A stretch of 13,616 nt of DNA from a virus, in the UHGV virus genome UHGV-0269933, one strand, 5' to 3'. This document shows, piece by piece, positions 1-12,183 of the stretch (its first letter is position 1; every line of letters starts with the position of its first letter). Below the pieces are notes generated by a model. That model was not told the origin of the DNA. It ran no database searches and saw only the letters and a program-made list of their open reading frames with translations. A program made the translations under genes and the position numbers.

Positions 1-25
1 TACTAATCAGTTAAGTGTTTGTTTT

Positions 26-63
26 AAAAGGCGCTACTCGGCATGGGGAAGCGCCTTTTTTAT
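26..63 (+). repeat. attL-type direct repeat (38 bp), also a Rho-independent terminator hairpin
   Basis: aaaaggcgctactcggcatggggaagcgccttttttat is identical to 11239..11276. GGCGCT...AGCGCC stem followed by a T-run. Confidence 0.8.
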
Positions 64-68
64 TAAAT

Positions 69-90
69 TGACTGCACCACTGACTGCACC
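69..90 (+). repeat. Tandem arm-type repeats TGACTGCACC(AC)TGACTGCACC, putative integrase arm sites (P' arm)
   Basis: Tandem 12-bp period repeat immediately inside the left att core. Near-identical tandem repeat at 11045..11068 in the same orientation. Confidence 0.55.
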
Positions 91-115
91 GATACACGAA
101 CTATAGCGAACGGCG

Positions 116-145
116 TTGAACGAAATCACCAACTAATCGTAATAT
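116..145 (+). promoter_or_regulatory. Sigma70-like promoter for the Abi-like gene (TTGAAC-N18-TAATAT)
   Basis: -35 TTGAAC at 116..121 and -10 TAATAT at 140..145. SD AAGGGG at 164..169 upstream of ATG 180. Confidence 0.4.
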
Positions 146-170
146 GATAAACCTCTACATATGAAGGGGT

Positions 171-944
171 ATGGTGTACATGAAGTCTATTCTTGATGAA
201 CTTAGTACTGATATTGAGCGCGCTGAAAGTCTACAGTCCCAGCTGATTAGCGTAGCTACTGGCGGACCTGCGTTACCATATGAATATCAGGAGCTAAGAC
301 GTTTTTTTGTTGAATCACCACTATATAGCAACATTATTCCCTCTTTCGTAAAAACAAACCGCAACACCGACCAATTTTGGCAATTTATTAAATACAAATT
401 TGGTACATATGCTGAAAGAAGGCAGTACATTTGGGATGAATTCCAAGAATTGATGGACTATCTGGAGGGTAAAAACAAAGCACCCGCAGATGAGGACATC
501 TCTGATGTATTAAGACGGTTTGATGAGGATGGTGTTCACACCGTGTGGATGAAAGCACTAGAACGGCGCCACACAGACCCGGATGGGGCGATAACCTCTG
601 CAAGAACACTTCTAGAAACGGTTTGCAAGCACATTCTTGATGATATGGATGTCCCCTATAATAATAAAAATATAGAAATGTCAGAGCTTTATAAAATACT
701 ATCAAAAGAACTTAACTTATCTGCCGACCAGCATACTGAAAGTATTTTCAAACAAATTCTTGGTGGTTGTTCAGCCGTTGTAAATGGGCTAGGTACTCTT
801 CGTAATAAACTTGGTGACGCACATGGAAAGAATCGCTCATCAGTTAAACCATCACCAAGGCATGCAGAACTCGCTGTAAATTTATCAGGCTCAATGGCTC
901 TTTTTCTAATTAGCTCATGGTTAAACCTTAAAGATAAAAATTAA
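171..944 (+). CDS. Abortive-infection family protein (Abi_C-like C-terminal domain); likely true start ATG at 180
   Basis: 257-aa ORF. C-terminal LGTLRNKLGDAHGK motif after a TLLETVCKHIL helix resembles the Abi_C family signature (from memory). AT-rich relative to flanks, own promoter and SD. Confidence 0.55.
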   Translation: MVYMKSILDELSTDIERAESLQSQLISVATGGPALPYEYQELRRFFVESPLYSNIIPSFVKTNRNTDQFWQFIKYKFGTYAERRQYIWDEFQELMDYLEGKNKAPADEDISDVLRRFDEDGVHTVWMKALERRHTDPDGAITSARTLLETVCKHILDDMDVPYNNKNIEMSELYKILSKELNLSADQHTESIFKQILGGCSAVVNGLGTLRNKLGDAHGKNRSSVKPSPRHAELAVNLSGSMALFLISSWLNLKDKN

Positions 945-969
945 TGAACTATGGACGTGATATGACCAA

Positions 970-1227
970 TTAGTTAATCATTATGTTCATCGGTTTAAGC
1001 TGTTTCTGGCTGTTCACCAGCCAATCTTGCATGTATTTGCACCAGGTACTGAACATCGCCTCATCAGTGCCTGGATAGGTGTACAGATACCCCATAAGGA
1101 CTTTATCGGTAATCTCATCCTCTTGATCCCAACCAATGATGAATTGACGAAATAGGCCGTATGATTTAGCCGGATCCGTATTCCTCCACGTTTCCACTAC
1201 TACATCGAATGCCGGAACCCTGAATGT
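970..1227 (-). pseudogene. 3' remnant of an unknown gene truncated by the IS66-family element
   Basis: Track ORF 970..1293; its N-terminal 22 aa are translation of the IS terminal repeat. Only the C-terminal ~85 aa (RVPAFDVVVETWRNTDPAKSYGLFRQF...) lie outside the IS. No start codon or SD. Confidence 0.35.
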
Positions 1228-2001
1228 GTAAGCGTGCAGTGAGAACCGTATTGACGAAGTGAAGCTGGTCAGGCAGGCAGAGTAACCCGCCACGGGAGCA
1301 GAGCACCCACCCGGTTCACAGGCCAGTCGGCGATGACATCAAGTACATAATGCAGATAGCGTTCCGGATCCACGCCGTTTAATTTGCACGTCCCGATAAG
1401 ACTGTACAGTGACGCACCGCGCTCACCACCATGATCCGAGCCGAAGAACAGCCAGTTTTTTCTCCCCAGACTGACCCGTCGTAGGGCGTTTTCGGCAATG
1501 TTATTATCCACCTCCACCCAGCCATCTTCTGCATAGCGGATCAGCGCCGGCCACTGGTTCAGCGCATACCCGAACGCCTTCGCCAGTTCTGAGTGCCTTG
1601 AGAGGGTTTTCTGTTTCTCCCGCAGCCACCCCTCCAGTGACGCCAGCAGCGGCAGCACTTTTTGGTGCCGGACTGCCTGCCGTTCCTCTGCTCTTTTACC
1701 TCTGATCTCCGACTCGATGGCATACAGCTCGCCGATCCGTTTCAGCGCCTCTTGCGAATGTCTGTCCTCTGGCTTTACTGGTGTTCATGTATTTTTCAAA
1801 GCCGGGGAGTGTAACTGACAGCGCTCGAAATACCTCTCGCGGTGTGCTAATCACTCGCTGGTGCTCCCGGCCAAATAATCTGATCAGAGGACCACTCAGT
1901 TTGATAGTTGTCATGACTTCTGCACATGGATTCATAGCCGCCTCAGTTAATTTTGGAGAAAGGAAACGGTTAGGCTTTTTTTAGCTCAAAATAGCGCTTA
2001 C
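1228..2001 (-). mobile_element. Internally deleted IS66-family insertion sequence remnant (~0.77 kb)
   Basis: GTAAGCG-type terminal sequences at both ends (1228 on +, 2001 on -). Contains the C-terminal ~170 aa of an IS66 TnpC-like transposase. No matching 8-bp target-site duplication (ctgaatgt vs catttcct). Confidence 0.7.
1269..1783 (-). pseudogene. IS66-family transposase (TnpC) C-terminal fragment
   Basis: Translation ...ALKRIGELYAIESEIRG...LAKAFGYALNQWPALIRYAEDGWVEVDNNIAENALRRVSLGRKNWLFFGSDHGGERGASLYSLIGTCKLNGVDPERYL...LLPW matches the conserved TnpC C-terminus. In-frame stop lies upstream at ~1786; N-terminal two-thirds absent. Confidence 0.8.
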
Positions 2002-2161
2002 CATTTCCTTTCTTTTTAGATGGTGTTTTCATTAAAAACATATAGTTACATCGAAGAAGAACAGAAACGGCAAATCGCAGAAAATTTTCATAAATAGCAA
2101 GAATCTGCGAGGTCGCCGCCCCGTAGCAGGCCGAATTGCCCGAAAGGACCCGCGCCGAAAT

Positions 2162-2268
2162 CGCTCAAACTTCAATCGGCCGAGTTTTCGAGGCGTTAAA
2201 GAGTAGATATGGGAATATCACATATGTAAAAACCAGCCGCGCTCAAACTTCAATCGGCCGAGTTTTCG
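2162..2268. repeat. Pair of perfect 29-bp direct repeats (2162..2190, 2240..2268) with embedded 9-bp-stem hairpin in second copy
   Basis: cgctcaaacttcaatcggccgagttttcg occurs twice, 78 bp apart. Second copy extends into aatcggccg-agtttt-cggccgatt inverted repeat. Confidence 0.6.
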
Positions 2269-2307
2269 GCCGATTACCAGGTCCGCCGGGTCATTCGGGC
2301 CTGTCGG

Positions 2308-2694
2308 TCAGCCAATCAACGTGCTTTTCCCGCCGCGAGCCTGCTGGCGCACACGCTCGGCCTTAAGGCAAAGAGATGCTTCAGGCTTAGCAGGTACAGG
2401 AACATGGCAGGTTTCAGAGGTCCGGGGAATGTTATTGATCCATTCAATAACTTCACTCAGATACCACGCCTTGCGCCCCTCAGTGACCTGGACGCGTACT
2501 GGAAACTCACCTCGCGCTTCGAGATTCAGCAATGTACGGCGGCTCAGCGTGGTGAGTTCTATGACCTGATTCATATCAACCAGGCGCTCACTGACGTTCA
2601 TTTTGTCTGCCATCTCCAGCAGTTCACCCACCACTGGATCCGGATAGAGAGCATTGGCGGTGGCCATCAGGCTGTTATTTTTATCTTGCATCAT
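2308..2694 (-). CDS. AlpA/Vis-family HTH DNA-binding protein (second copy, with N- and C-terminal extensions)
   Basis: Core MNQVIELTTLSRRTLLNLEARGEFPVRVQVTEGRKAWYLSEVIEWIN fits the phage AlpA/excisionase-type HTH pattern. Start ATGATG at 2694/2691 with AAGGAG SD; the 144-aa track ORF start is an unsupported upstream extension. Confidence 0.55.
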   Translation of the reverse strand: MMQDKNNSLMATANALYPDPVVGELLEMADKMNVSERLVDMNQVIELTTLSRRTLLNLEARGEFPVRVQVTEGRKAWYLSEVIEWINNIPRTSETCHVPVPAKPEASLCLKAERVRQQARGGKSTLIG

Positions 2695-2701
2695 AATCTC
2701 C

Positions 2702-3043
2702 TTACACCAGTGCCAGTGGCTGAACAGAAATACCAGAGCCAACGAACGCTGCTACTTTTGCAGAAAGCGTGGTTACATCATCAGGCCAGTTAAGGGCATC
2801 AACATTCAGCACGCCAGCTTTGTAGACCTGAGCATGTGTCTGGCTTGCGGTATCAACAGCAAAGCAAGATACATAGACAGCCTGCCCGGCATGCGCCCCA
2901 TCCCAGACCACCAAAGCCCCATTGGTAGCATCCTGCATAAGTGGAGTCAGCGCGGGAATAACGCCCTTTGCTCCAGCGAAGATACCCAGAGTTGTCACCA
3001 GCGCTTCAGTACCGGCCGCCAGTTCAGTGTAATGCGTCGTCAT
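2702..3043 (-). CDS. Phage head decoration protein, lambda gpD-like
   Basis: 113 aa; ALTPLMQDATNGALVVWDG...VYKAG...AAFVGSGISV aligns with lambda gpD (AMTPLMLDTSSRKLVAWDG...FYKSG...TAFAGTAISIV). AAGGAG SD; translationally coupled to upstream capsid gene. Confidence 0.75.
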   Translation of the reverse strand: MTTHYTELAAGTEALVTTLGIFAGAKGVIPALTPLMQDATNGALVVWDGAHAGQAVYVSCFAVDTASQTHAQVYKAGVLNVDALNWPDDVTTLSAKVAAFVGSGISVQPLALV

Positions 3044-3052
3044 GATTACTCC

Positions 3053-4093
3053 TTAGGCCACGCGAACGGTGACAAAACGGTTGATACGGGCCGGGATAGG
3101 CTGCGGTGCGGAGTGGGTCTGAACGTACTCAATAGCTGGGTCGCCAGGAACAATGTAGTTCTTTGGCGCCAGCTCAGCTTTGGTAATACCCATACGGATG
3201 AGCTCTGGATCCTGAATTCCGCCGTAGGCCACAATGCCCTGCAGGGCGGTGTTTCCCAGCACCATCAAATCAGGATCGAGGAAGTGCTTTTCGGTGCCGT
3301 CTTCGTCGGTATAGCGACCGCTATAAACCACAATAGCCACATCGCCCATATAGCCTTTAAAGCTCACTGAATCGCCCAGGTCTTTAAGTGCTGTTTCAAG
3401 CTGTGCGTTGGAGCCGCGGCGCGTGTCGAGTACATCTTTAATCGCTTTGAAAGAACGATATTTTTTCCAGACGTTCCCGCCCATAATGATGATATTGGTT
3501 ACGCCTTCACTCAGCTCTGAATAGGTTTCAATATCGTCATTTGGATCAAACGTCGTTTTATCTTTACCTGACCAGGCAGCGCCACCAGCCTGAGTGATTA
3601 TATTCTGGGATTTGATATTCCAGTCCAGCTCATAACGCTCGATCCCTTCCCCCTCAATAATATTTTTCCCGGTAGTTACAGCCTGAACAGCCAGCCATTC
3701 AATACGCGCACGAATAGCAATAGACTGTTTGAGGATTGACTGTTTTACCTTGATATTGCGGGTATCAAGCGTGCTGTATTGATCAGGAGTAACACCAGCA
3801 GGACGAACAGCCAGTTTGTTAGGGTCAATGTTGCTCTTTGGTTTCATGTAGCCAGGACGGATAGACTTGGACTCATATCCCTCATCACGCGCCACCTTAC
3901 TACCCACCATAGGCGAACAGAACGCCGCGATTGGAATATTTGGGTCGTCGATAGTGTCCAGGATGATATCGCGCGTTTCAAAAGTAACTGCGCGGGTAAA
4001 GAATAAATCAGTGAACAGGGTTTTTAGTTGCTTCTGAATATCCTCAGCGCTAACAACCCGAACCAGCGCCGCAGGTGAATATAAATCTGGCAT
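3053..4093 (-). CDS. Major capsid protein, lambda gpE-like
   Basis: 346 aa, full-length collinear similarity to lambda gpE (341 aa): PGYMKPK..., ITQAGGAAWSGKDKTTFDPNDDIETY..., FRSFKAIKDVLDTRRGSNAQLETALKDLG...YMGDVAIVVYSG...MVLGNT...YGGIQD...GDPA... SD GAGG upstream of ATG. Confidence 0.9.
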   Translation of the reverse strand: MPDLYSPAALVRVVSAEDIQKQLKTLFTDLFFTRAVTFETRDIILDTIDDPNIPIAAFCSPMVGSKVARDEGYESKSIRPGYMKPKSNIDPNKLAVRPAGVTPDQYSTLDTRNIKVKQSILKQSIAIRARIEWLAVQAVTTGKNIIEGEGIERYELDWNIKSQNIITQAGGAAWSGKDKTTFDPNDDIETYSELSEGVTNIIIMGGNVWKKYRSFKAIKDVLDTRRGSNAQLETALKDLGDSVSFKGYMGDVAIVVYSGRYTDEDGTEKHFLDPDLMVLGNTALQGIVAYGGIQDPELIRMGITKAELAPKNYIVPGDPAIEYVQTHSAPQPIPARINRFVTVRVA

Positions 4094-4301
4094 ATATTAC
4101 CTCAGTAAAATAAATAGAGCGTTCATCACAAAAATAATGTTAACACTGACAAACACAGAATGATTGAATGCAATGATGTGCAATAGAGTGCAATAATGTA
4201 TAAAGTTAATTCACGGTGATATGGCCCGCTAAATATCTGTTAATGTCCTCACTGTTATTTCCTCCAAATAACATCGTTCGTTAAAAATCCATGTTTTCCC
4301 A

Positions 4302-4331
4302 AGCGGGTCTGGTTGCAGCCCGCTTTTTTTT
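4302..4331 (+). terminator. Rho-independent terminator on + strand (hairpin + T8) with no annotated + strand gene upstream
   Basis: agcgggtctggttgcagcccgct stem-loop followed by tttttttt. Lies in the leader region upstream of the capsid gene. Confidence 0.45.
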
Positions 4332-4366
4332 CGTCTTTCGCAAAATTATGGATCGGCAAAATGAGT

Positions 4367-4646
4367 GGTGAAAATCACCCTACCCACAGCTTTAAAATTA
4401 AAAAATATCCTTTTAAGTGTTCACCCGTTCACCTTTGCGAATTTCTTAATTAAATTCATGTAGTTATAGGGTGAATACTACTCTTTCAGGTATTCACTAG
4501 TGTTCACCCTACCCTTCACCCTTTAGGGCAAAAAACAATCAAAAGGTGAACAGGTGAATACTTGGTGAATACTTAATAAATAAGTGTCCACCCCTTAACA
4601 CTCTGTTATTAATAGAATTTTAAACAGGGTGAATACTGGTGAACAC
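4367..4646. repeat. Iteron cluster of P4 ori/crr type (TGTTCACC / GTATTCACC), ~12 copies in both orientations
   Basis: TGTTCACC at 4418, 4426, 4501; GGTGAACA/GGTGAATAC at 4470, 4545, 4553, 4564, 4628, 4638; variants at 4490, 4513, 4585; GGTGAAAATCACC palindrome at 4367. Matches the P4 type I iteron motif bound by alpha (recalled). Confidence 0.7.
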
Positions 4647-4659
4647 TTTATCTATAACT

Positions 4660-5361
4660 TTACTCTACCCCTTCATTCTCAGTAGTGATTGCACATGATG
4701 GCATCCAGTCGCCAGAATCATCATGCAGGGTTACGTTAGAGCGTATGCCATGTTTGGTTTTCCGCTTCTGGTATTCCTTCCCATACTCAACCATTGCGCC
4801 AGGCATATCTGTACCGAACCGCATCAGTGAGACAGGCTTACTCAGGCCATTGGCTCTCATGTATGCCAGATAGGCGTGATACAGGTACTTGCGCGGGCTG
4901 AATGGCACTATCTCGGCATTACCGATAAACATCCCGTCACACACTACCGACGCCATCAGGTAGCCGCAGAAGTCCACCAGCGAATCACCTTCACGCTTGA
5001 TCGCCAGAGCCTCCTCTGATTTCTGCTGCTCATACAATAACCGTCTGGCTTCGTCCTGGTCTGCAAAACGTGTAAGCAGATGGCGGATAACTACAGCCAG
5101 TTCCCCTTCTATTTTCTCTGCCAGCATCGAGTCTCGCTCGTTTTCTGGTACAACCTCCGAGAAATTGAAAATAACCCGGCGCCGCGAAATCCCCCCGCTA
5201 CGGTCGCTGAATGTCATAGCATTGTTGTTTACCGCCAGCACCACCGCCGGAATACGGGTTGAATATGGTGCTTTATGTTTAGGATCGATAGACACCTTGT
5301 CACCACCAGTTATGGCCTTAATACCTGCACCATCGCCAGCGTACCGGGTCATATCAGGCAT
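4660..5361 (-). CDS. P4 alpha-type primase/helicase C-terminal (iteron-binding) domain homolog, stand-alone/truncated
   Basis: 233 aa beginning near the SF3-helicase arginine-finger region (AVVLAVNNNAMTFSDRSGGISRRRVIFNF). No Walker A/B or primase domain. Located immediately upstream of the TGTTCACC iterons, as the alpha 3' end is in P4. Confidence 0.55.
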   Translation of the reverse strand: MPDMTRYAGDGAGIKAITGGDKVSIDPKHKAPYSTRIPAVVLAVNNNAMTFSDRSGGISRRRVIFNFSEVVPENERDSMLAEKIEGELAVVIRHLLTRFADQDEARRLLYEQQKSEEALAIKREGDSLVDFCGYLMASVVCDGMFIGNAEIVPFSPRKYLYHAYLAYMRANGLSKPVSLMRFGTDMPGAMVEYGKEYQKRKTKHGIRSNVTLHDDSGDWMPSCAITTENEGVE

Positions 5362-5427
5362 AATGATCGTAATGTTCCTTTATTTCATGAATCGTAATAG
5401 GCATAAATTCTCCTTGTTTGTCTAACC

Positions 5428-5620
5428 TGCCGCATTTAGTGCCGCGTTTAGCAATGCCGCACTTAGCGCCGCACCAGTTTTCTCAAAAAATTACGCAAAC
5501 CCAGTAATGACGTGGGTTTCAGTGAAATGCCGCACTTAGCGCGTGTATACAGGGACTAAGTGCGGCATTTGGTCATAAAACATACTAAATGCCGCACATG
5601 CCGCACTTACCGCCGCATTT
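5428..5620. repeat. Cluster of >=5 copies of ATGCCGCACTTAGCGC-like repeats including a 15-bp perfect inverted repeat
   Basis: Copies at ~5428, 5455, 5527, 5554 (inverted), 5588-5620. AAATGCCGCACTTAG-N16-CTAAGTGCGGCATTT at 5526..5571. Hairpin aaaccca/tgggttt at 5497..5519. Confidence 0.6.
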
Positions 5621-6983
5621 ACTCGACTGTTACCGGGTAAAGGTTCTCACCCTCGATGCGAATAATTTGCTCACTCTCCAGCTTGTCCAGCCAGCGCGGG
5701 AATGACTTTCTCACTTTGTCTGAGCCCAGCGTTGCACGCAGATCGTCTTTAATGACGGAGATAGTGCATGGCTCCCCCTTAGCTGTTCGGCTGCGAACTG
5801 CCTGCCATAGTGCATGATGGTTATCGCTAAGACGGGATACATGGGCCAGTTCAGGCTCAACCTCTTTAGCCTCTCTCGGCTGATCGTGCACAACCAGAGA
5901 GCAAACAAGCTCGCCATCTTCATCGGTGTAAAGCTCTGCCGTTCTCAGGTCATACGCTTTACGCTCTGGCTCCTCCGCGTCTTTCATCTTGGTACAGGTC
6001 AGAATAAGCGCTTTTCCATCCCCTTCACGCTTAACGTTAAATTCAGTATCAAGCGCAGCGCGGAAAGCACTGGAACCGCGAGCGCCTTTCCCTTCATCTT
6101 TGCCGGAGTGGTGAACTACCAGCACCGTTGCACCCGTTTTCTGTTTGATAACGTCACACCCTTCAATAAATGCCCCCATATCACGAGCATCGTTCTCGTC
6201 GTTACCGCCAAAACAACGGGCCAGCGTATCGATCACCACCATGCGAACCGGCACACCACATTCGGCTTCAATCTGCCTGGCAGCCAGAAGAACTTCTGTA
6301 ACCTCTGACTCACGCACCGGGAACACCGGACGATTGACCAGCCAGAGGTTGTCTGCCTGTATGCCATGCACCTGTTCCCATGCCCGTATACGCCGGGGAA
6401 CACCTACACCACCCTCGCCAACCACATACAGCACCGCGCCGGGAGTGACCTTCTTCCCCGCCCATGGCAGACCAGCAGCGATATGACAGGCCCACGACAC
6501 GGCAAGAAAACTCTTATACGAACCGCTGGGGCCGTAAATGCTGCACAGTGATTGCGCTGGCAGAAAGTGTTTAAGGATATAGTCCTGACGGATATCAAAG
6601 CCCTCAGAACCGCGAGAGAGAGGCAGCTTTGTCCTGAACTTTGCACCAGCATCAGGGAATACGCGGTGAATGCGCTGCACGTCAGACAGCATGGCATTCA
6701 TTTCCCCTTCGCCTATCTCTTCCACCAGCACAGAACGCCGCGCGGTAATCATATGTTTGCGGTCGGTATCGAGATACCCGGCATCACAAAGCTCCTCATA
6801 CGGCATTGCTGCTATCTGGTTGAGGCGAGCCACCAGCTTTCCGTAACGGGTAGTGGGGTCCTTATGCTGGTGGAGAGCTTTATCCAAATCGCTGCGACTG
6901 TACTGCTTGCCATGCGCCCACAGATACGAACAGGTGAACAAGGCATCCGATACGGTTTCTACAGCTGTCAGTTGTACCGTCAT
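5619..6983 (-). CDS. RepA-like replicative helicase / AAA_25 (RecA-fold) ATPase with N- and C-terminal accessory domains
   Basis: 454 aa; Walker A GPSGSYKS, Walker B-like VVIDTLARCF, HHSGKDEGKGARGSSA motif typical of RSF1010 RepA/DnaB-like helicases. ATGA overlap with upstream gene. Confidence 0.75.
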   Translation of the reverse strand: MTVQLTAVETVSDALFTCSYLWAHGKQYSRSDLDKALHQHKDPTTRYGKLVARLNQIAAMPYEELCDAGYLDTDRKHMITARRSVLVEEIGEGEMNAMLSDVQRIHRVFPDAGAKFRTKLPLSRGSEGFDIRQDYILKHFLPAQSLCSIYGPSGSYKSFLAVSWACHIAAGLPWAGKKVTPGAVLYVVGEGGVGVPRRIRAWEQVHGIQADNLWLVNRPVFPVRESEVTEVLLAARQIEAECGVPVRMVVIDTLARCFGGNDENDARDMGAFIEGCDVIKQKTGATVLVVHHSGKDEGKGARGSSAFRAALDTEFNVKREGDGKALILTCTKMKDAEEPERKAYDLRTAELYTDEDGELVCSLVVHDQPREAKEVEPELAHVSRLSDNHHALWQAVRSRTAKGEPCTISVIKDDLRATLGSDKVRKSFPRWLDKLESEQIIRIEGENLYPVTVE

Positions 6984-7348
6984 TTTGGAATGCCCCCGCT
7001 CATCTGGAATTTGCCGATCAGAGGATGGAACCAGTATGCAGAGCCATATTTGCGCTTAGCACTGCGCAGCACCAACCGTGCCGCTTCCCTGAACTTTTCA
7101 TCAGGTGCAACGAACCCGCCTGATTTCAGTTTAACCAGCATCACCCCTGTGTTTTTCGCCAGCTCCTCAGCCTTTTTGGTTGAGATACCGTATTCAGCAG
7201 CCAGTGTTGCTACTGGCGTCATACCCGGAGGGATTTCTCCGCCCTGACTATCGGTAAGTGATTTAACCTGAGCCTCAAGGCGCAAGACCTTCTCAACCAG
7301 CAGATCAACGCGGTTAGCCAGTTCGTTAAACTTCACATTGCTGATCAT
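6980..7348 (-). CDS. Hypothetical protein with N-terminal coiled coil and putative HTH
   Basis: 122 aa; TPVATLAAEYGISTKKAEELAK looks HTH-like. ATGA start/stop overlaps on both sides. Confidence 0.55.
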   Translation of the reverse strand: MISNVKFNELANRVDLLVEKVLRLEAQVKSLTDSQGGEIPPGMTPVATLAAEYGISTKKAEELAKNTGVMLVKLKSGGFVAPDEKFREAARLVLRSAKRKYGSAYWFHPLIGKFQMSGGIPK

Positions 7349-7572
7349 GGTCTTGCCTCCTGCGTTTCAGGGTCTGAAAAAGTAGAAATATCCAGTGAGT
7401 TTGCCAGTTCGTCAGAAAGGCGCTGAGCCAGGTGCGTTAAACTCATTACATGGATACGCTCCGCCTCCCCCTTGATAGTTGAAAGGTAAGCAGCACATGA
7501 CATGAGCGCAGCAACCTCTTGCGCCAGTAACAGCAAATCTTTTTTGCTGCGGTAGGTGTAAAAGTTATCCAT
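7345..7572 (-). CDS. Hypothetical small protein (75 aa)
   Basis: Start ATG at 7572 overlaps upstream stop (ATGGATAA). Track ORF 7345..7689 extends upstream without support. Confidence 0.5.
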   Translation of the reverse strand: MDNFYTYRSKKDLLLLAQEVAALMSCAAYLSTIKGEAERIHVMSLTHLAQRLSDELANSLDISTFSDPETQEARP

Positions 7573-7750
7573 TGAGCGCTCCCGTTTCATTCTGCTCCAC
7601 CATGCTTGCCGCAAGTTGATCCGATACTCGTCTGGCCAGACTGATAAGGTTTTCACGCTCAACCTGATCAACGTCGTACTCTTCGACAACCATCAACAAC
7701 GCAGCCAGTTCACAGGCTATTGACGCACTTTTATTGGTTAATTCACGCAT
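7565..7750 (-). CDS. Hypothetical small protein (61 aa)
   Basis: Start ATG at 7750 in ATGCGTGA overlap with upstream gene stop. Track ORF 7565..7912 is an upstream extension in another gene's sequence. Confidence 0.5.
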
Positions 7751-8012
7751 GGCGCACCTCCTGAATAGCTGCGCTATCGAACTCCCAGCCACGGCGGGTG
7801 GTGTAATCGAAAAACGCAACGCGACAAGGAGACTGGGCGCGGATTTTGGCAGCGAAAACCAAATCCCAGCCGGGGAATGCAGAGCGGGCTTTATCTTCCG
7901 TATCAGCATCAAAGCGGAGCACTACAGGTGTGCATTTTGGGGTGTGGTCTGGGGTTGCCAGGAATAACCATGTAAATTCCGGGCGAGTTTGGGTATGCTG
8001 TTGATCAGCCAT
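7743..8012 (-). CDS. Hypothetical protein (89 aa), first gene of replication operon
   Basis: Start ATG at 8012 with GGAG SD ([13 protein letters not shown]...). The 318-aa track ORF 7743..8699 upstream of this Met is low-complexity, Cys/Arg/Ser-rich non-coding translation. Confidence 0.55.
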
Positions 8013-8139
8013 AACTGTTACTCCGATTAACGGTTTGGTTAGACGCCCTGGTACTGCTCTAACAGTCCGGGGCGTTGCTTTTTGGTATGCACCTGCCATA
8101 CACTTGATTACCATTTCAAAGTAATCAGGTGTCAACCAA

Positions 8140-8319
8140 ATGTCAACCATAGAAATTAAAGCCAAAGGTAACAAGCAGATCGCATTACGCGTAGAACCAA
8201 ACCTAGAAGAAGGAATTAAACAGGCTCTGGCGCAAGATGGTGACGCTTCTGTATCAGCATGGATAAAGCGAATAATCCGCAAAGAGTTACAGCAGCGAGG
8301 CATTGAGCCGAAAAGCTGA
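8140..8319 (+). CDS. Small ribbon-helix-helix-like DNA-binding protein (59 aa), candidate island regulator/repressor; absent from ORF track
   Basis: ATG 8140 with AGGTG SD 9 nt upstream; stop TGA 8317..8319. KQIALRVEP strand plus two amphipathic helices fits Arc/MetJ/CopG topology. Divergent from the replication operon across a 127-bp region. Confidence 0.5.
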
Positions 8320-8499
8320 TACCCAAAATCTGGGTAACGGTCGAAACTACGGGAATTCTCCGGGGTATGCTGCATTGCAGTACACCCGGCACTCTGTTCC
8401 AGTTCTCCCCAGATTTGGGGAAATGGGGTATGCGCCAATGCCGTACACCCTAAACAGCCCAATTTCTGGGTAGTTTCACGTAACCGCGCCATTGACACA

Positions 8500-8519
8500 G
8501 TTCCTGTAATTACAGGAAC
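8500..8519. promoter_or_regulatory. 20-bp perfect palindrome GTTCCTGTAATTACAGGAAC adjacent to TTGACA; candidate operator
   Basis: Perfect dyad symmetry. TTGACA hexamer at 8492..8497 immediately upstream. Confidence 0.45.
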
Positions 8520-8588
8520 GCTCAGGCTTTGACCACCAGCATTAACCCTGGTATCCTGACTTTGCTTAATTTTTTGGTAGTGACATTG

Positions 8589-8616
8589 GCGGCCCGGCAT
8601 GGCCGCTTTTGTTTTA
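8589..8616 (+). terminator. Rho-independent terminator on + strand
   Basis: gcggcc-cggcat-ggccgc hairpin followed by ttttgtttta; ~270 nt downstream of the RHH gene stop. Confidence 0.55.
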
Positions 8617-8634
8617 TGTGACATTCCCCACCCC

Positions 8635-8844
8635 TCACGCTGCTTTGCTGCGGCTCTGCTGCCATGCTGTGACCTCAGAAAGAAGCCAACCAACGGCACG
8701 ACCTCCCAGCTTACGGCGGGCGGGAAAGCTCCCCTCTTTTTCCATCATGTATCGAGTGGTTCGACAAATACCGGTTAGCTGTCGGCACTCAGCCTCACGG
8801 ATAACTCTTTCTGCTGGCTGCTGGGATTGTTTAATATTGTTCAT
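8635..8844 (-). CDS. alpA: AlpA-family transcriptional regulator (prophage CP4-57-type)
   Basis: 69 aa from MNNIKQ; ...[43 protein letters not shown] is the AlpA HTH signature. The longer 81-aa reading would translate through a hairpin and has no SD. Confidence 0.75.
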
Positions 8845-8880
8845 AAAAAAATGCTCTCGTTCGCTAAGGTTCGAGAGCAT
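8845..8880 (-). terminator. Terminator-like hairpin with 9-bp perfect stem directly abutting the alpA start codon
   Basis: On the - strand, atgctctcg-aaccttagcgaa-cgagagcat followed by ttttttt then ATG of alpA. The 3' arm contains the only SD-like GAGAG. Confidence 0.45.
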
Positions 8881-8959
8881 TGTTATTCAACAAAATTATC
8901 ACCGCGACGGTGAGAAAAAAATTATATTCCTCTAAAGGAGTTACCCTTATTCAGTTATA

Positions 8960-9802
8960 TCAAGATAATTCTTTCCTGATTTTATCTAAAGAATCACTTC
9001 TTATGATTTTATCCAAGAAAGGTTTTACCGTTTGAGCTATGGCAAAGGACTCCTTTTCTCCATCCGGGAACAGGGATACTGCGAGTACGCCAAGAGATAT
9101 TTTGCTGTCGGTAGCGCTTTCCCATGACATCAAATCAATAAGTGGAATTATTCTGTAGTCAATTATTTTCCGTCTGACGCTCTCCCAGTCCCCTGAGACT
9201 GGCTTATCTGGTTCAGGTATTCCGAGTTCTTCGCGCCATTTTGGGAGGAGGTTCGTGAATGCTTCAATCAAAAGATCATCTCTGTTGTTTAAGTCAACAG
9301 TAATCATCACGTTTTCCACAACATCAGAAAGTAAGTTTACTGGCTCGCGCATGATAGCCCAAAACATACCGTTATCTGCTGTAAACAAATCCCCCACCAA
9401 ATCATCGTCAACTACTATTGGCTTTCCTTTCCAGTGACCTTTATCAGCATTGATTTTATTTAAAAATGCCAACTCAAATCTCATTAATGGTTTTATACCA
9501 TCGCCGTAACTTAATTTTAGCAAATCAGGCTGAGTCTTGTACTCGTATTCCTTTTGCTTTTCAAGAAACCATTCTTCTGCTTTGAGTTCCCCGAATGGAT
9601 CACCAAAATTATTGTTAAGCGGGTATTTAGCACCATATTGCAAACCATAGTCAGGGCAGTCTGTATTTTTTATTGCTAAATCATCGCATCGCCAATAGAG
9701 CTGACGAAACAAATCCTTATCAGACATATTTTCAAGGTCATCATATTTTTCCAAGCTGAATGACTTTGGTAAGTCTCTTTTACTGTTAATTTTTTTTGTC
9801 AT
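8960..9802 (-). CDS. Hypothetical protein (280 aa), AT-rich cargo gene translationally coupled to integrase; function unknown
   Basis: ATG overlaps the integrase stop codon (ATGA). Markedly lower GC than neighbours; acidic, Lys/Asp/Glu-rich; no motif recognised. Confidence 0.6.
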   Translation of the reverse strand: MTKKINSKRDLPKSFSLEKYDDLENMSDKDLFRQLYWRCDDLAIKNTDCPDYGLQYGAKYPLNNNFGDPFGELKAEEWFLEKQKEYEYKTQPDLLKLSYGDGIKPLMRFELAFLNKINADKGHWKGKPIVVDDDLVGDLFTADNGMFWAIMREPVNLLSDVVENVMITVDLNNRDDLLIEAFTNLLPKWREELGIPEPDKPVSGDWESVRRKIIDYRIIPLIDLMSWESATDSKISLGVLAVSLFPDGEKESFAIAQTVKPFLDKIIRSDSLDKIRKELS

Positions 9803-11022
9803 CTTGCGACCTCAAGAATAGTAACATTTGAGATATCAGAGGTAATAACCTCTAATCTCTGCATCCATTTATTCAGTGCATCCAGCTTTTCAGGTAAATA
9901 CTGACTGCGGTTATATACGGACATGACACCGCCCAGCGCATGGCCCAGAAGCTGCTCGACAACATGCGGAGCAATTCCCATGTTGTTCAGAGTCGTGGAA
10001 AACGTACGGCGTAGATCGTGAAGCGTCCACGGTTCAGAGTGGCCCAGACGCTTATACAACATCCTTCCCCACTGACTGACAGCTTCCGGTTTCTTTATCT
10101 CTCCAAGCAAAAGCCCTGTGCTTTGGTGCTGCTCTAAGAGCTGTTTGATAAATGGGCGGATATCTACGGGAATAGGACGTAGTATTTTCTCACCACCTTT
10201 GCTGTGCTCTTTAGGTACAGTCCAAACCCAATCACTTAGATCCCATTCGGTTACGCGAGACAATCTCAACTCCTGAGTTCGGCACCCAAACACTACTAGC
10301 AGACGTAGCAGCGAGGAGTAGTAGGGCTTGAATTTCAAGCCTGAACACTCCCGCCATATATCAGCCAGTTCTTGCCGGGTATGTTCCCTGTCCCGTTTAT
10401 TCTGTTTACGTCCAACATCATCAATGGTCAGATCGTCCAGGACATTACTCACCGCGTACCGATGAACACGGCAGAACTTGAGGGCTTGCTTACACATTTG
10501 CAGAAGATAGCCAGCAGCTACAGGAGCCTCATCTCTCACCCTGCTGAAACACTCCAGCCAGTGGCGGGTTTCGCACATAGAGAGGGGAAACGCCCCAATA
10601 TATGGGTAGATATGCTTATTGAGCTGTTCTATATGCTTTTCTACATTAGCCCGTTTATGAGATGCATATTCCCTTATCCAGTATTCAAGTGCCTCTTTTA
10701 CAGTTACCGGCTTAAGTGTTTCCTGTGTGGTGACAGTTAACTGGTGTTTCGGGTTCTTCCCCTCAGCAAGCCAGGCACGACATTGATCTCGCTTTGCCCT
10801 CGCGGCCTTAAGTGAAAGATCGGGATAGTTACCTAACTTCAAACGCTGAGGGGCAGTACTGCGTCCACCAATACGGTATGTAAAATACCAGGTCATTATG
10901 CCTATCTTTGACACCTTTACGCTCAGGCCATCACCATCAGCGTAAAAGCTATCACCGGGGCTTTCCCTCCCAACCATCTTGCGGAGCGATGTATCGCTTA
11001 ACTTGTTCGTTCCACCAGCCAT
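9799..11022 (-). CDS. int: Site-specific tyrosine recombinase, P4-type integrase (Arm-binding N-domain + catalytic domain)
   Basis: 407 aa. N-terminal ...DGDGLSVKVSKIGIMTWYFTYRIGG...LKLGNYPDLSLKAARAKRD arm-binding pattern. C-terminal HDLRRTFST...LGHALGGVMSVYNRSQY catalytic motifs, similar to P4 Int. GAGG SD. Confidence 0.9.
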   Translation of the reverse strand: MAGGTNKLSDTSLRKMVGRESPGDSFYADGDGLSVKVSKIGIMTWYFTYRIGGRSTAPQRLKLGNYPDLSLKAARAKRDQCRAWLAEGKNPKHQLTVTTQETLKPVTVKEALEYWIREYASHKRANVEKHIEQLNKHIYPYIGAFPLSMCETRHWLECFSRVRDEAPVAAGYLLQMCKQALKFCRVHRYAVSNVLDDLTIDDVGRKQNKRDREHTRQELADIWRECSGLKFKPYYSSLLRLLVVFGCRTQELRLSRVTEWDLSDWVWTVPKEHSKGGEKILRPIPVDIRPFIKQLLEQHQSTGLLLGEIKKPEAVSQWGRMLYKRLGHSEPWTLHDLRRTFSTTLNNMGIAPHVVEQLLGHALGGVMSVYNRSQYLPEKLDALNKWMQRLEVITSDISNVTILEVAR

Positions 11023-11044
11023 AAAAACCTCAGTTCATTTTTGG

Positions 11045-11068
11045 CACTGACTACACCACTGACTACAC
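11045..11068 (+). repeat. Tandem arm-type repeats CACTGACTACAC x2 (P arm)
   Basis: Perfect tandem 12-mer between the integrase start and the att core; homologous to the repeats at 69..90. Confidence 0.55.
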
Positions 11069-11195
11069 ATCTCAATGTTACTCTATGAACAGCAATGAAC
11101 AAAGGCAAACCAGAAAAACGATATTATCGTTATATATCATAATAATACACGAACAACAGCAAACATAACCGAACGGTAAAAAACGTAGGTTTTGA

Positions 11196-11213
11196 AAATA
11201 CGGCATGAACTAA
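11196..11213 (+). other. fis: Last six codons of fis (K-Y-G-M-N-stop) at the island/chromosome junction
   Basis: aaa tac ggc atg aac taa encodes the conserved Fis C-terminus. Stop lies 85 bp upstream of the yhdJ ATG. Sequence upstream is integrase leader, not fis. Confidence 0.5.
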
Positions 11214-11238
11214 TTCAGGTTAGCTAAATGCTTGATTA

Positions 11239-11276
11239 AAAAGGCGCTACTCGGCATGGGGAAGCGCCTTTTTTAT
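11239..11276 (+). terminator. attR-type direct repeat, the fis Rho-independent terminator
   Basis: Identical to 26..63. GC-rich hairpin followed by a T6 run, upstream of yhdJ. Confidence 0.8.
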
Positions 11277-11298
11277 AGGTGTCACAAAGGGAGTGACC

Positions 11299-12183
11299 AT
11301 GAGAACAGGATGTGAACCGACCCGGTTTGGTAATGAAGCTAAGACCATTATTCACGGTGATGCCCTTGCCGAACTTAAAAAGCTACCTACTGAAAGCGTC
11401 GATCTGATCTTTGCCGACCCACCGTATAACATCGGTAAAAATTTTGATGGTCTGATCGAAGCCTGGAAAGAAGATCTGTTTATCGACTGGCTGTTTGAAG
11501 TGATTGCAGAGTGCCACCGCGTTCTGAAAAAGCAGGGCAGCATGTACATTATGAACAGTACGGAAAACATGCCCTTTATCGATCTCCAGTGCCGCAAGCT
11601 TTTTACCATCAAAAGTCGCATCGTCTGGTCATATGACAGTTCTGGAGTACAGGCGAAAAAACACTACGGCTCCATGTACGAACCCATCCTGATGATGGTG
11701 AAAGACGCAAAGAACTACACATTCAACGGTGATGCTATTCTGGTAGAAGCCAAAACCGGATCGCAGCGCGCGTTGATCGATTATCGCAAAAATCCTCCAC
11801 AGCCATACAATCATCAAAAAGTACCGGGTAACGTCTGGAATTTTCCGCGCGTGCGTTATTTAATGGATGAATATGAGAACCACCCGACGCAAAAACCGGA
11901 AGCCTTACTGAAACGCATTATTCTCGCCTCTTCCAACCCAGGCGATATCGTTCTCGACCCGTTTGCCGGTAGCTTTACTACCGGTGCCGTAGCCATCGCC
12001 AGCGGACGAAAATTCATTGGTATTGAGATCAACAGCGAGTACATCAAAATGGGGCTTCGACGGCTGGATGTCGCGTCGCATTACTCCGCGGAAGAACTGG
12101 CGAAAGTGAAAAAAAGAAAGACGGGCAACCGGTCAAAACGATGCCGGGTTAGCGAAGTTGACCCCGATCTCATTGCAAAGTAA
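11299..12183 (+). CDS. yhdJ: DNA adenine (N6) methyltransferase YhdJ
   Basis: 294 aa from MRTGCEPTRFGNEAK...; DPPY motif (FADPPYNIG); C-terminal SAM-binding motif DPFAGSFTTG. SD AAAGGGAG. Track start at GTG 11293 is less likely. Confidence 0.9.
   Translation: MRTGCEPTRFGNEAKTIIHGDALAELKKLPTESVDLIFADPPYNIGKNFDGLIEAWKEDLFIDWLFEVIAECHRVLKKQGSMYIMNSTENMPFIDLQCRKLFTIKSRIVWSYDSSGVQAKKHYGSMYEPILMMVKDAKNYTFNGDAILVEAKTGSQRALIDYRKNPPQPYNHQKVPGNVWNFPRVRYLMDEYENHPTQKPEALLKRIILASSNPGDIVLDPFAGSFTTGAVAIASGRKFIGIEINSEYIKMGLRRLDVASHYSAEELAKVKKRKTGNRSKRCRVSEVDPDLIAK

Follow-up and report, generated by a model that had tools for sequence, protein, structure and literature searches.

The stretch analyzed here, UHGV virus genome UHGV-0269933 (13,616 nucleotides, hereafter called the window), contains an element of ~11.2 kb that is, judged by its relatives and its junctions, a satellite island of the phage-inducible chromosomal island (PICI) type, located at the 3' terminus of fis and upstream of yhdJ. 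Close to each of its ends lies a tandem pair of short direct repeats, and we consider it likely (with a probability of roughly 0.8) that these pairs are arm-type sites for the N-terminal domain (N-domain) of the heterobivalent integrase encoded by the island. Such a role, for an arm-binding tyrosine integrase, had been proposed in a first-pass annotation made from the letters alone, and it is supported by the presence of an Arm-DNA-bind_3 domain in the integrase, the conservation of the pairs in related loci, their fixed position relative to the crossover core, and the covariation of their sequence with the integrase N-domain.

The short-arm pair (P', proximal to fis) is formed by two copies of TGACTGCAC at positions 69–77 and 81–89, and the long-arm pair (P, proximal to the integrase gene int) by two copies of TGACTACAC at 11048–11056 and 11060–11068, all of them on the plus strand. 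Letters 69–89 read TGACTGCAC-CAC-TGACTGCAC, preceded by TTTTTTATTAAAT and followed by CGA, and letters 11045–11068 read CAC-TGACTACAC-CAC-TGACTACAC, preceded by GG and followed by ATC; the two arms differ at unit position 6, which is G in the short arm vs. A in the long arm. The matching, co-oriented tandem 12-bp repeats that the first-pass annotation had seen at both island ends were recovered as four copies of TGACTRCAC with a period of 12 bp, and these are the only exact matches to the motif in the 13.6-kb window. When the doubled pattern TGACTRCACNNNTGACTRCAC was searched with up to three mismatches, two matches were obtained, both of them the arm pairs, compared with 0.01 expected from 200 shuffles, none of which reached two matches.

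Related loci were gathered from E. coli (7 loci) and, via integrase alignment, from other species (46 loci); the contig loci had at most 10 kb of flank, and few of them extended as far as the opposite arm. A tandem pair was found just beyond the int start in almost every one of them. The period was examined in 38 long arms, those for which the core could serve as an anchor (threshold ≥ 9/11 matches): a period-12 pair was present in all 38, compared with 1.1 in shuffled arms, and each of the other periods between 7 and 18 occurred in 0–9 loci. No short-arm-type pair was seen in host flanks without an island behind them. Units of 9 bp are short, and their similarity could in principle be due to chance or to a non-functional duplication relic, an explanation to which we assign almost no weight, as the two doubled matches far exceed the expectation, the pairs have been kept across many genera while the flanking sequence diverged, and the 12-bp period is present in every anchored arm. 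These comparative data effectively refute it.

The position of the pairs has to be read relative to the crossover. By comparison of the junctions, the crossover lies in TACGGCATGAACT, because this is the only block common to both junctions across all integrase classes, in agreement with the published identity block of fis PICIs, TACGGCATGAACTAA, which can extend into the terminator and within which excision was mapped to TACGGCATGAACTGATAC (PMC10111431 and work cited therein). At the yhdJ-side junction the core block TACGGCATGAACT(AA) occupies 11199–11213 on the plus strand (core 11199–11211) and comprises the last codons and the stop codon of fis. The core of the left junction lies outside the window, ~15 nt to the left of position 1, because positions 1–29 match the island-side flank that follows ...GAACTGA in the E. 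coli locus L005 (TGA-TACTAATCAGTTAAGTGTTTG), unlike the chromosomal flank of E. coli, which they do not match.

The first-pass annotation had instead placed the core in a long direct repeat (9–63 and 11222–11276, exact over 26–63 and 11239–11276) that, judged from the flanks, is the fis terminator together with a copy carried by the island. The terminator hairpin was rejected as a core since the flank between GAACT and the hairpin tracks the host at the yhdJ side and the island at the fis side, and the mapping of excision to TACGGCATGAACTGATAC also speaks against it. At the yhdJ side all E. coli loci have the same flank irrespective of island class, and loci from Enterobacter, Klebsiella, Raoultella, and others have that of their respective host. 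At the fis side, the sequence after GAACT is island-specific, as L005 and L006 differ though both are from E. coli, and L007 and L008 have an unrelated hairpin. The window accordingly has, at 1–63 (plus strand, part of the P' arm), a fis 3' flank with terminator hairpin that the island supplies in place of the native one, and, at 11214–11276 (plus strand), the native chromosomal fis 3' flank and terminator (B'), followed by yhdJ. The island appears to supply its own stop codon (an inferred TGA) as well as a near-identical fis terminator hairpin, so that fis would stay terminated after insertion and the native terminator would be left beside yhdJ. The island's copy of the fis flank resembles the version of Enterobacter or Buttiauxella instead of the E. 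coli version, a hint of an earlier host.

The distances given in the first-pass annotation (a few bp for the left end, ~170 bp for the right end) are correct with respect to the long direct repeat, from which the left pair is 5 bp away, although this repeat is not the crossover core. The proposed geometry of P and P' arms holds insofar as the pairs flank the core on both sides, the real distances being ~151 and ~83 bp from the core start, and by analogy the corrected geometry resembles that of lambda more closely than the earlier one. In the window the long-arm pair starts 151 bp from the core start; among the relatives the corresponding distance is 150–156 bp in 37 loci and 162–167 bp, i.e., one helical turn more, in 7 loci. 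The short-arm pair of the window lies ~83 bp from the core start, a figure based on homology with L002 and L005, and same-class pairs are found at 81–83 bp in L002–L006, L013, L020, and L053. In L007 and L008 the short-arm pair is at 71 bp and the long-arm distance is ~11 bp larger, with the pair-to-pair distance staying at 236–237 bp. Repeats unlike the core sequence are therefore found on both arms, with a conserved distance in ~44 loci (long arm) and in 10 loci (short arm). Six loci (L030, L032, L033, L035, L036, and L039) have a short-arm-type pair of another class 75–82 bp after the yhdJ-side core and terminator copy; to judge from this arrangement, the pair marks a second island in tandem at fis, with hybrid junctions between arm classes.

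The distance between the long-arm pair and the int ATG, on the other hand, varies between 0 and 211 bp; as the spacing to the core stays constant to within a few bp, the constraint appears to be the geometry of the attachment (att) region and not the expression of int. This bears on the explanation by which the pair next to int serves solely as an operator or promoter element for int, with the distal copy being incidental. The window's pair is located 26–46 bp upstream of the start codon of int, that of L007 directly adjoins the ATG, and in the E. coli element KplE1 the arm-type sites of IntS overlap the -10 box of intS and mediate autorepression (PMC2951348). A purely regulatory role is nevertheless highly improbable, given that the spacing follows the core and not the start codon, that the opposite arm has an equivalent pair at a constant distance, 10–15 kb from int when the island is integrated, and that scans of both att regions (including 10950–11300) for sigma-70 promoters and terminators found none.

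The protein to which we assign the pairs is a tyrosine integrase of 407 aa encoded on the minus strand (9799–11022), with an arm-binding N-domain at approximately residues 1–95 (nt 10738–11022). It matches the Pfam families Arm-DNA-bind_3 (PF13356, 2.9e-18), Phage_int_M (PF22022), and Phage_integrase (PF00589, 3.6e-16), and the candidate catalytic residues R248, H335, R338, H361, and Y370 are invariant among the relatives aligned. Residues 8–93 match solved arm-type binding domains (PDB 3jtz/3rmp, 1.6e-6; 3ju0, 2.3e-4), including those of the HPI and HAI7 integrases (3jtz, 3ju0); the similarity is remote, these islands target tRNA genes, and the comparison covers the sequence of the protein domain. 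The island's product is thus a tyrosine recombinase whose arm-binding domain forms a separate N-terminal part, by these matches of the P4/CP4-57 type.

The sequence of the pairs falls into at least 10 classes, including TGACTRCAC, AGACTACAC, GTGATACAC, TGTTTATACA, GAGTACCCCAC, and GATTACCCCAC as well as TGTAGCGCAC, TGAACCCAC, GTTACAC, and TTGCAATACAC, and each of them goes together with a characteristic N-domain segment at the positions of window residues 55–62 (APQRLKLG in the window). For instance, the class (T/A)GACTRCAC is associated with xPQRxKL or xSQRxKL, GTGATAC with KLERL, TGTTTATACA with KLHRLTL, TACCCCAC with EAIILTL or EADIITL, and TTGCAATACAC with APIWLTL. Some arms deviate from two tandem units, as L042 has four (ATGTGACACACC) and L036 three (TGTTTATACA), the latter together with a disrupted integrase N-terminus. 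When classes are compared with each other, conservation of the N-domain falls below that of the remaining integrase (e.g., 52% vs. 69%; 75% vs. 92%), while within a class it equals or exceeds it.

Both the integrase and AlpA, a small winged helix-turn-helix protein, differ between the pair classes, and their contributions were separated by a partial Mantel test on 39 loci (741 pairs), from which L036 and L052 were left out due to their disrupted integrase N-termini. Repeat similarity was correlated with N-domain identity when AlpA and the rest of the integrase were controlled for (partial r = 0.24, permutation p = 0.001), and not with AlpA when the integrase was controlled for (partial r = -0.09, p = 0.96). 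The sequence of the sites thus covaries with the integrase N-domain.

AlpA is a rival candidate. The island's protein of this family (69 aa, 8635–8844, minus strand, PF05930) is a candidate directionality factor or activator, and the pairs could be its sites, bound cooperatively as direct repeats. Without partialling, repeat class and AlpA identity are correlated (Spearman 0.34, compared with 0.45 for the N-domain), which we ascribe to the linkage between the modules of int and alpA. Direct repeats with a spacing of about one helical turn are the typical targets of directionality factors (PMC7498355), and AlpA was left as a candidate binder of a comparable doubled motif in helper-embedded PICIs (HE-PICIs; PMC10111431). 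Besides the absence of a partial correlation, individual loci make this assignment unlikely. Near-identical AlpAs occur with different repeats in L038 and L039 (AlpA 98%, rest of the integrase 92%, N-domain 75% identical), in the Xenorhabdus loci L032–L035 vs. L036, and in L037 vs. L047–L051; the window and L020 have AlpAs that are 78% identical and repeats that differ. Conversely, L020 on the one hand and L040 and L053 on the other have unrelated AlpAs (25–34% identical) and the GTGATACAC repeat in common. In lambda, P2, and 186 the sites of the directionality factor are usually on one arm only, unlike the pairs described here, which are on both arms and whose sequence does not follow the factor.

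Binding by another protein, either encoded by the island (e.g., the DUF6387 protein) or by the host, is very unlikely as well. Between the stop codon of int and the start codon of the DUF6387 gene there is a 4-nt overlap (9799–9802), an arrangement that suggests translational coupling, and the arms contain further conserved motifs (ATGAAC repeats) to which no binder is assigned. A DUF6387-equivalent gene is found in some classes; L007 and L008 have neither DUF6387 nor an equivalent and yet carry the pairs. A host protein cannot explain at least 10 island-specific classes within one host species (E. coli alone has four), and the covariation is with the integrase N-domain.

Several points weigh against the integrase as the reader of the pairs, in addition to the correlation with AlpA before partialling. 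The effect in the Mantel test is of modest size and based on a crude measure of similarity, and the loci are not independent phylogenetically. Unit position 6 tracks the integrase type, G going with SQR(I/V)KL and A with PQRxKL (L002, L004, L009–L019), but the window combines an integrase of the PQR type and a long arm of the A type with a short arm, TGACTGCAC, of the G type. This position is probably tolerated, because the independent SRA contig L056 keeps the A-long/G-short configuration of the window and L016 mixes both within one arm; a chimeric origin of the window island is also possible. The short-arm copies of L007 and L008 are degenerate, matching each other at only 7/10 positions. 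The 12-bp period exceeds a helical turn, so adjacent sites would not lie on exactly the same face of the DNA. Finally, the left core is situated outside the window, and the distance of 83 bp comes by homology only. On balance, the comparison of loci favours the integrase, not AlpA, as the protein that reads the doubled motif.

Under this assignment, the C-terminal domains of the integrase would act on the core TACGGCATGAACT, while the N-terminal Arm-DNA-bind_3 domain would bind the 9-bp TGACTRCAC sites, of which there are two on either side of the core, in the same orientation and with a period of 12 bp. In the circular attachment site (attP), the int-side pair would be found ~151–131 bp from the core and the opposite pair at ~83–104 bp, and the 2 + 2 co-oriented arm sites would offer four sites to the four protomers of an integrase tetramer. 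The AT-rich arms would be bent, probably with the help of the integration host factor (IHF) or another accessory protein, and the arm-bound N-domains would bridge to the core-bound catalytic domains, forming an intasome of ~260 bp that would give directionality to integration and excision. The int-proximal pair could also autoregulate int, as in KplE1. The window has one perfect match to the IHF consensus (AATCAAGCATTTA), at 11225–11237 on the minus strand, in the native flank between the core and the terminator; the copy of this match in the island flank (12–24, minus strand) has one mismatch, and the number of one-mismatch hits in the whole window equals the chance expectation.

Other repeated motifs were observed in the arms. 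The long arm carries ATGAAC-N4-ATGAAC, a possible accessory site, at 11085–11104 (plus strand), approximately at -114/-104 from the core in the core-anchored alignment. It is conserved even among islands with unrelated AlpA and resembles the CATGAAC of the core; a period-10 repeat is present in 9/38 long arms. CGAAC and TGAAC repeats follow the short-arm pair (97–120), and AAC recurs approximately every 10 bp from -45 to -13 in the same alignment. In addition, ATGAACTGA, which is the same as the fis terminus/att core (Met-Asn-stop), occurs in inverted orientation at 11030–11038 (minus strand), 8 nt upstream of the int start; it is found upstream of int in 20/51 related loci, and the spacing is 11–28 nt in several integrase classes. 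The sequence may represent a core-type half-site, a mini-ORF (open reading frame) in the leader, or a relic.

The closest known counterpart is found in HE-PICIs, where a doubled motif, tgTGTATTGCantgTGTATTGCa, occurs twice per attP at 81 ± 2 and 132 ± 2 bp from the centre, with the integrase's arm domains or AlpA suggested as binder, and where the same motif was stated not to be found in the attPs of fis PICIs (PMC10111431). The window shares with HE-PICIs the doubled unit of 12-bp period, the two co-oriented copies per attP, and an integrase of the same family (a sister clade), and the distances are similar (81–83 bp and, taken from the proximal edge, ~131 bp in fis PICIs). It differs in the sequence itself, TGACTRCAC instead of tgTGTATTGCantgTGTATTGCa, with several classes among fis PICIs; in both groups the sites are predicted only. 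L047–L051 even carry the exact HE-PICI motif as its reverse complement, TTGCAATACAC. Class-specific sequence variation probably explains why a search for a single motif missed the pairs of fis PICIs. The doubled arm-site architecture was therefore known from HE-PICIs, and its occurrence in fis PICIs is new and mechanistically expected. A cf-PICI (capsid-forming PICI) preprint and the ICEKp1 paper make no mention of arm sites.

Lambda offers a more distant comparison. Its Int is likewise heterobivalent and has arm sites distinct from the core on both arms (P1, P2, and P'1–P'3), with those of the short arm in tandem. The IHF-consensus match between the core and the short-arm pair corresponds in position to H', which is weak evidence. 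Unlike lambda, the window has a 2 + 2 instead of a 2 + 3 arrangement, the long arm adjoins int, the period is 12 bp, and the N-domain belongs to Arm-DNA-bind_3 instead of the lambda Int family. The lambda attP measures ~240–260 bp (PMC4880445), like the one predicted for fis PICIs. The IntS/TorI system of KplE1 (CPS-53) in E. coli K-12 also has arm-type sites in the att region directly upstream of the integrase gene, and there IntS and TorI repress intS through these sites (PMC2951348). KplE1 differs from the window in its target (argW), in an arm motif with a conserved TAAA, in its directionality factor (TorI), and in the overlap of its arm sites with a promoter, no sigma-70 promoter having been detected in the att regions of the window.

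The assignment of the element to PICI-type satellites at fis/yhdJ follows from the related E. coli loci, in which fis is directly to the left of the island and several of which have the full cf-PICI gene set. The right junction (11199–11213), which has the identity block TACGGCATGAACT(A/G)A typical of fis PICIs, is followed by the native terminator and by yhdJ (11293–12183), yhdU, and acrS of E. coli, and the left flank matches the island side of L005. To the left of int lie the DUF6387 gene, the AlpA gene, small ORFs, a gene for a RepA-type helicase (5619–6983, minus strand), and further cargo. The gene set of fis PICIs is thus present, i.e., int, alpA, and a RepA-type helicase with iterons, in an island of small size (~11.2 kb). 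The iterons (5425–5617) consist of at least five copies of an 18–20-nt unit (AAATGCCGCACTTAGCGC-like), some of them inverted, and adjoin the helicase gene; the cluster is probably the replication origin of the island. The full cf-PICI set (capsid, protease, portal, connectors, HNH, small and large terminase) is absent from the window, where portal and terminase genes were not found and the head genes are limited to a lambda-type capsid E (3053–4093) and an HDPD decoration gene (2702–3043); a complete head and packaging module is present in the relatives L002–L006. Positions 171–5361 form a region of cargo and decay, which also contains an Abi_C abortive-infection gene (171–944), an IS66 transposase fragment (1269–1658), a second AlpA-like gene (about 2431–2583, minus strand), and a truncated D5 primase (4660–5361) that has its full length (599 aa) in contig L062. 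Among complete E. coli genomes, none contains the island (the best one covers 57% of it, with int at 88% nucleotide identity) or its left end, while metagenome and SRA contigs carry an identical island with the same arms.

The fis gene is the insertion site of thousands of Enterobacterales PICIs, 2,642 of which were mapped in one survey (PMC10111431). For these islands, the functional attP is predicted to extend from about -155 to +105 around TACGGCATGAACT, which shows how much flanking DNA to include in PICI vectors and in excision and integration assays. The published absence of the doubled motif from fis PICIs is corrected, and the comparative evidence favours the integrase over AlpA as its reader, while the general view of tyrosine integrase action is unchanged. 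Matched pairs of N-domains and arm sites are also candidates for orthogonal integration systems. More tentatively, and with clearly less than even confidence, we propose that, among integrases sharing the fis core, the proteins and their arm sites have jointly diverged into at least 10 distinct "arm codes", each readable from N-domain residues 55–62, and that this may be driven by the competition of satellites for one bacterial attachment site (attB). In tandem arrays at fis, orthogonal arms would stop the integrase of one island from excising or scrambling its neighbour. If true, fis PICIs would represent a natural set of orthogonal, re-programmable heterobivalent integrases.

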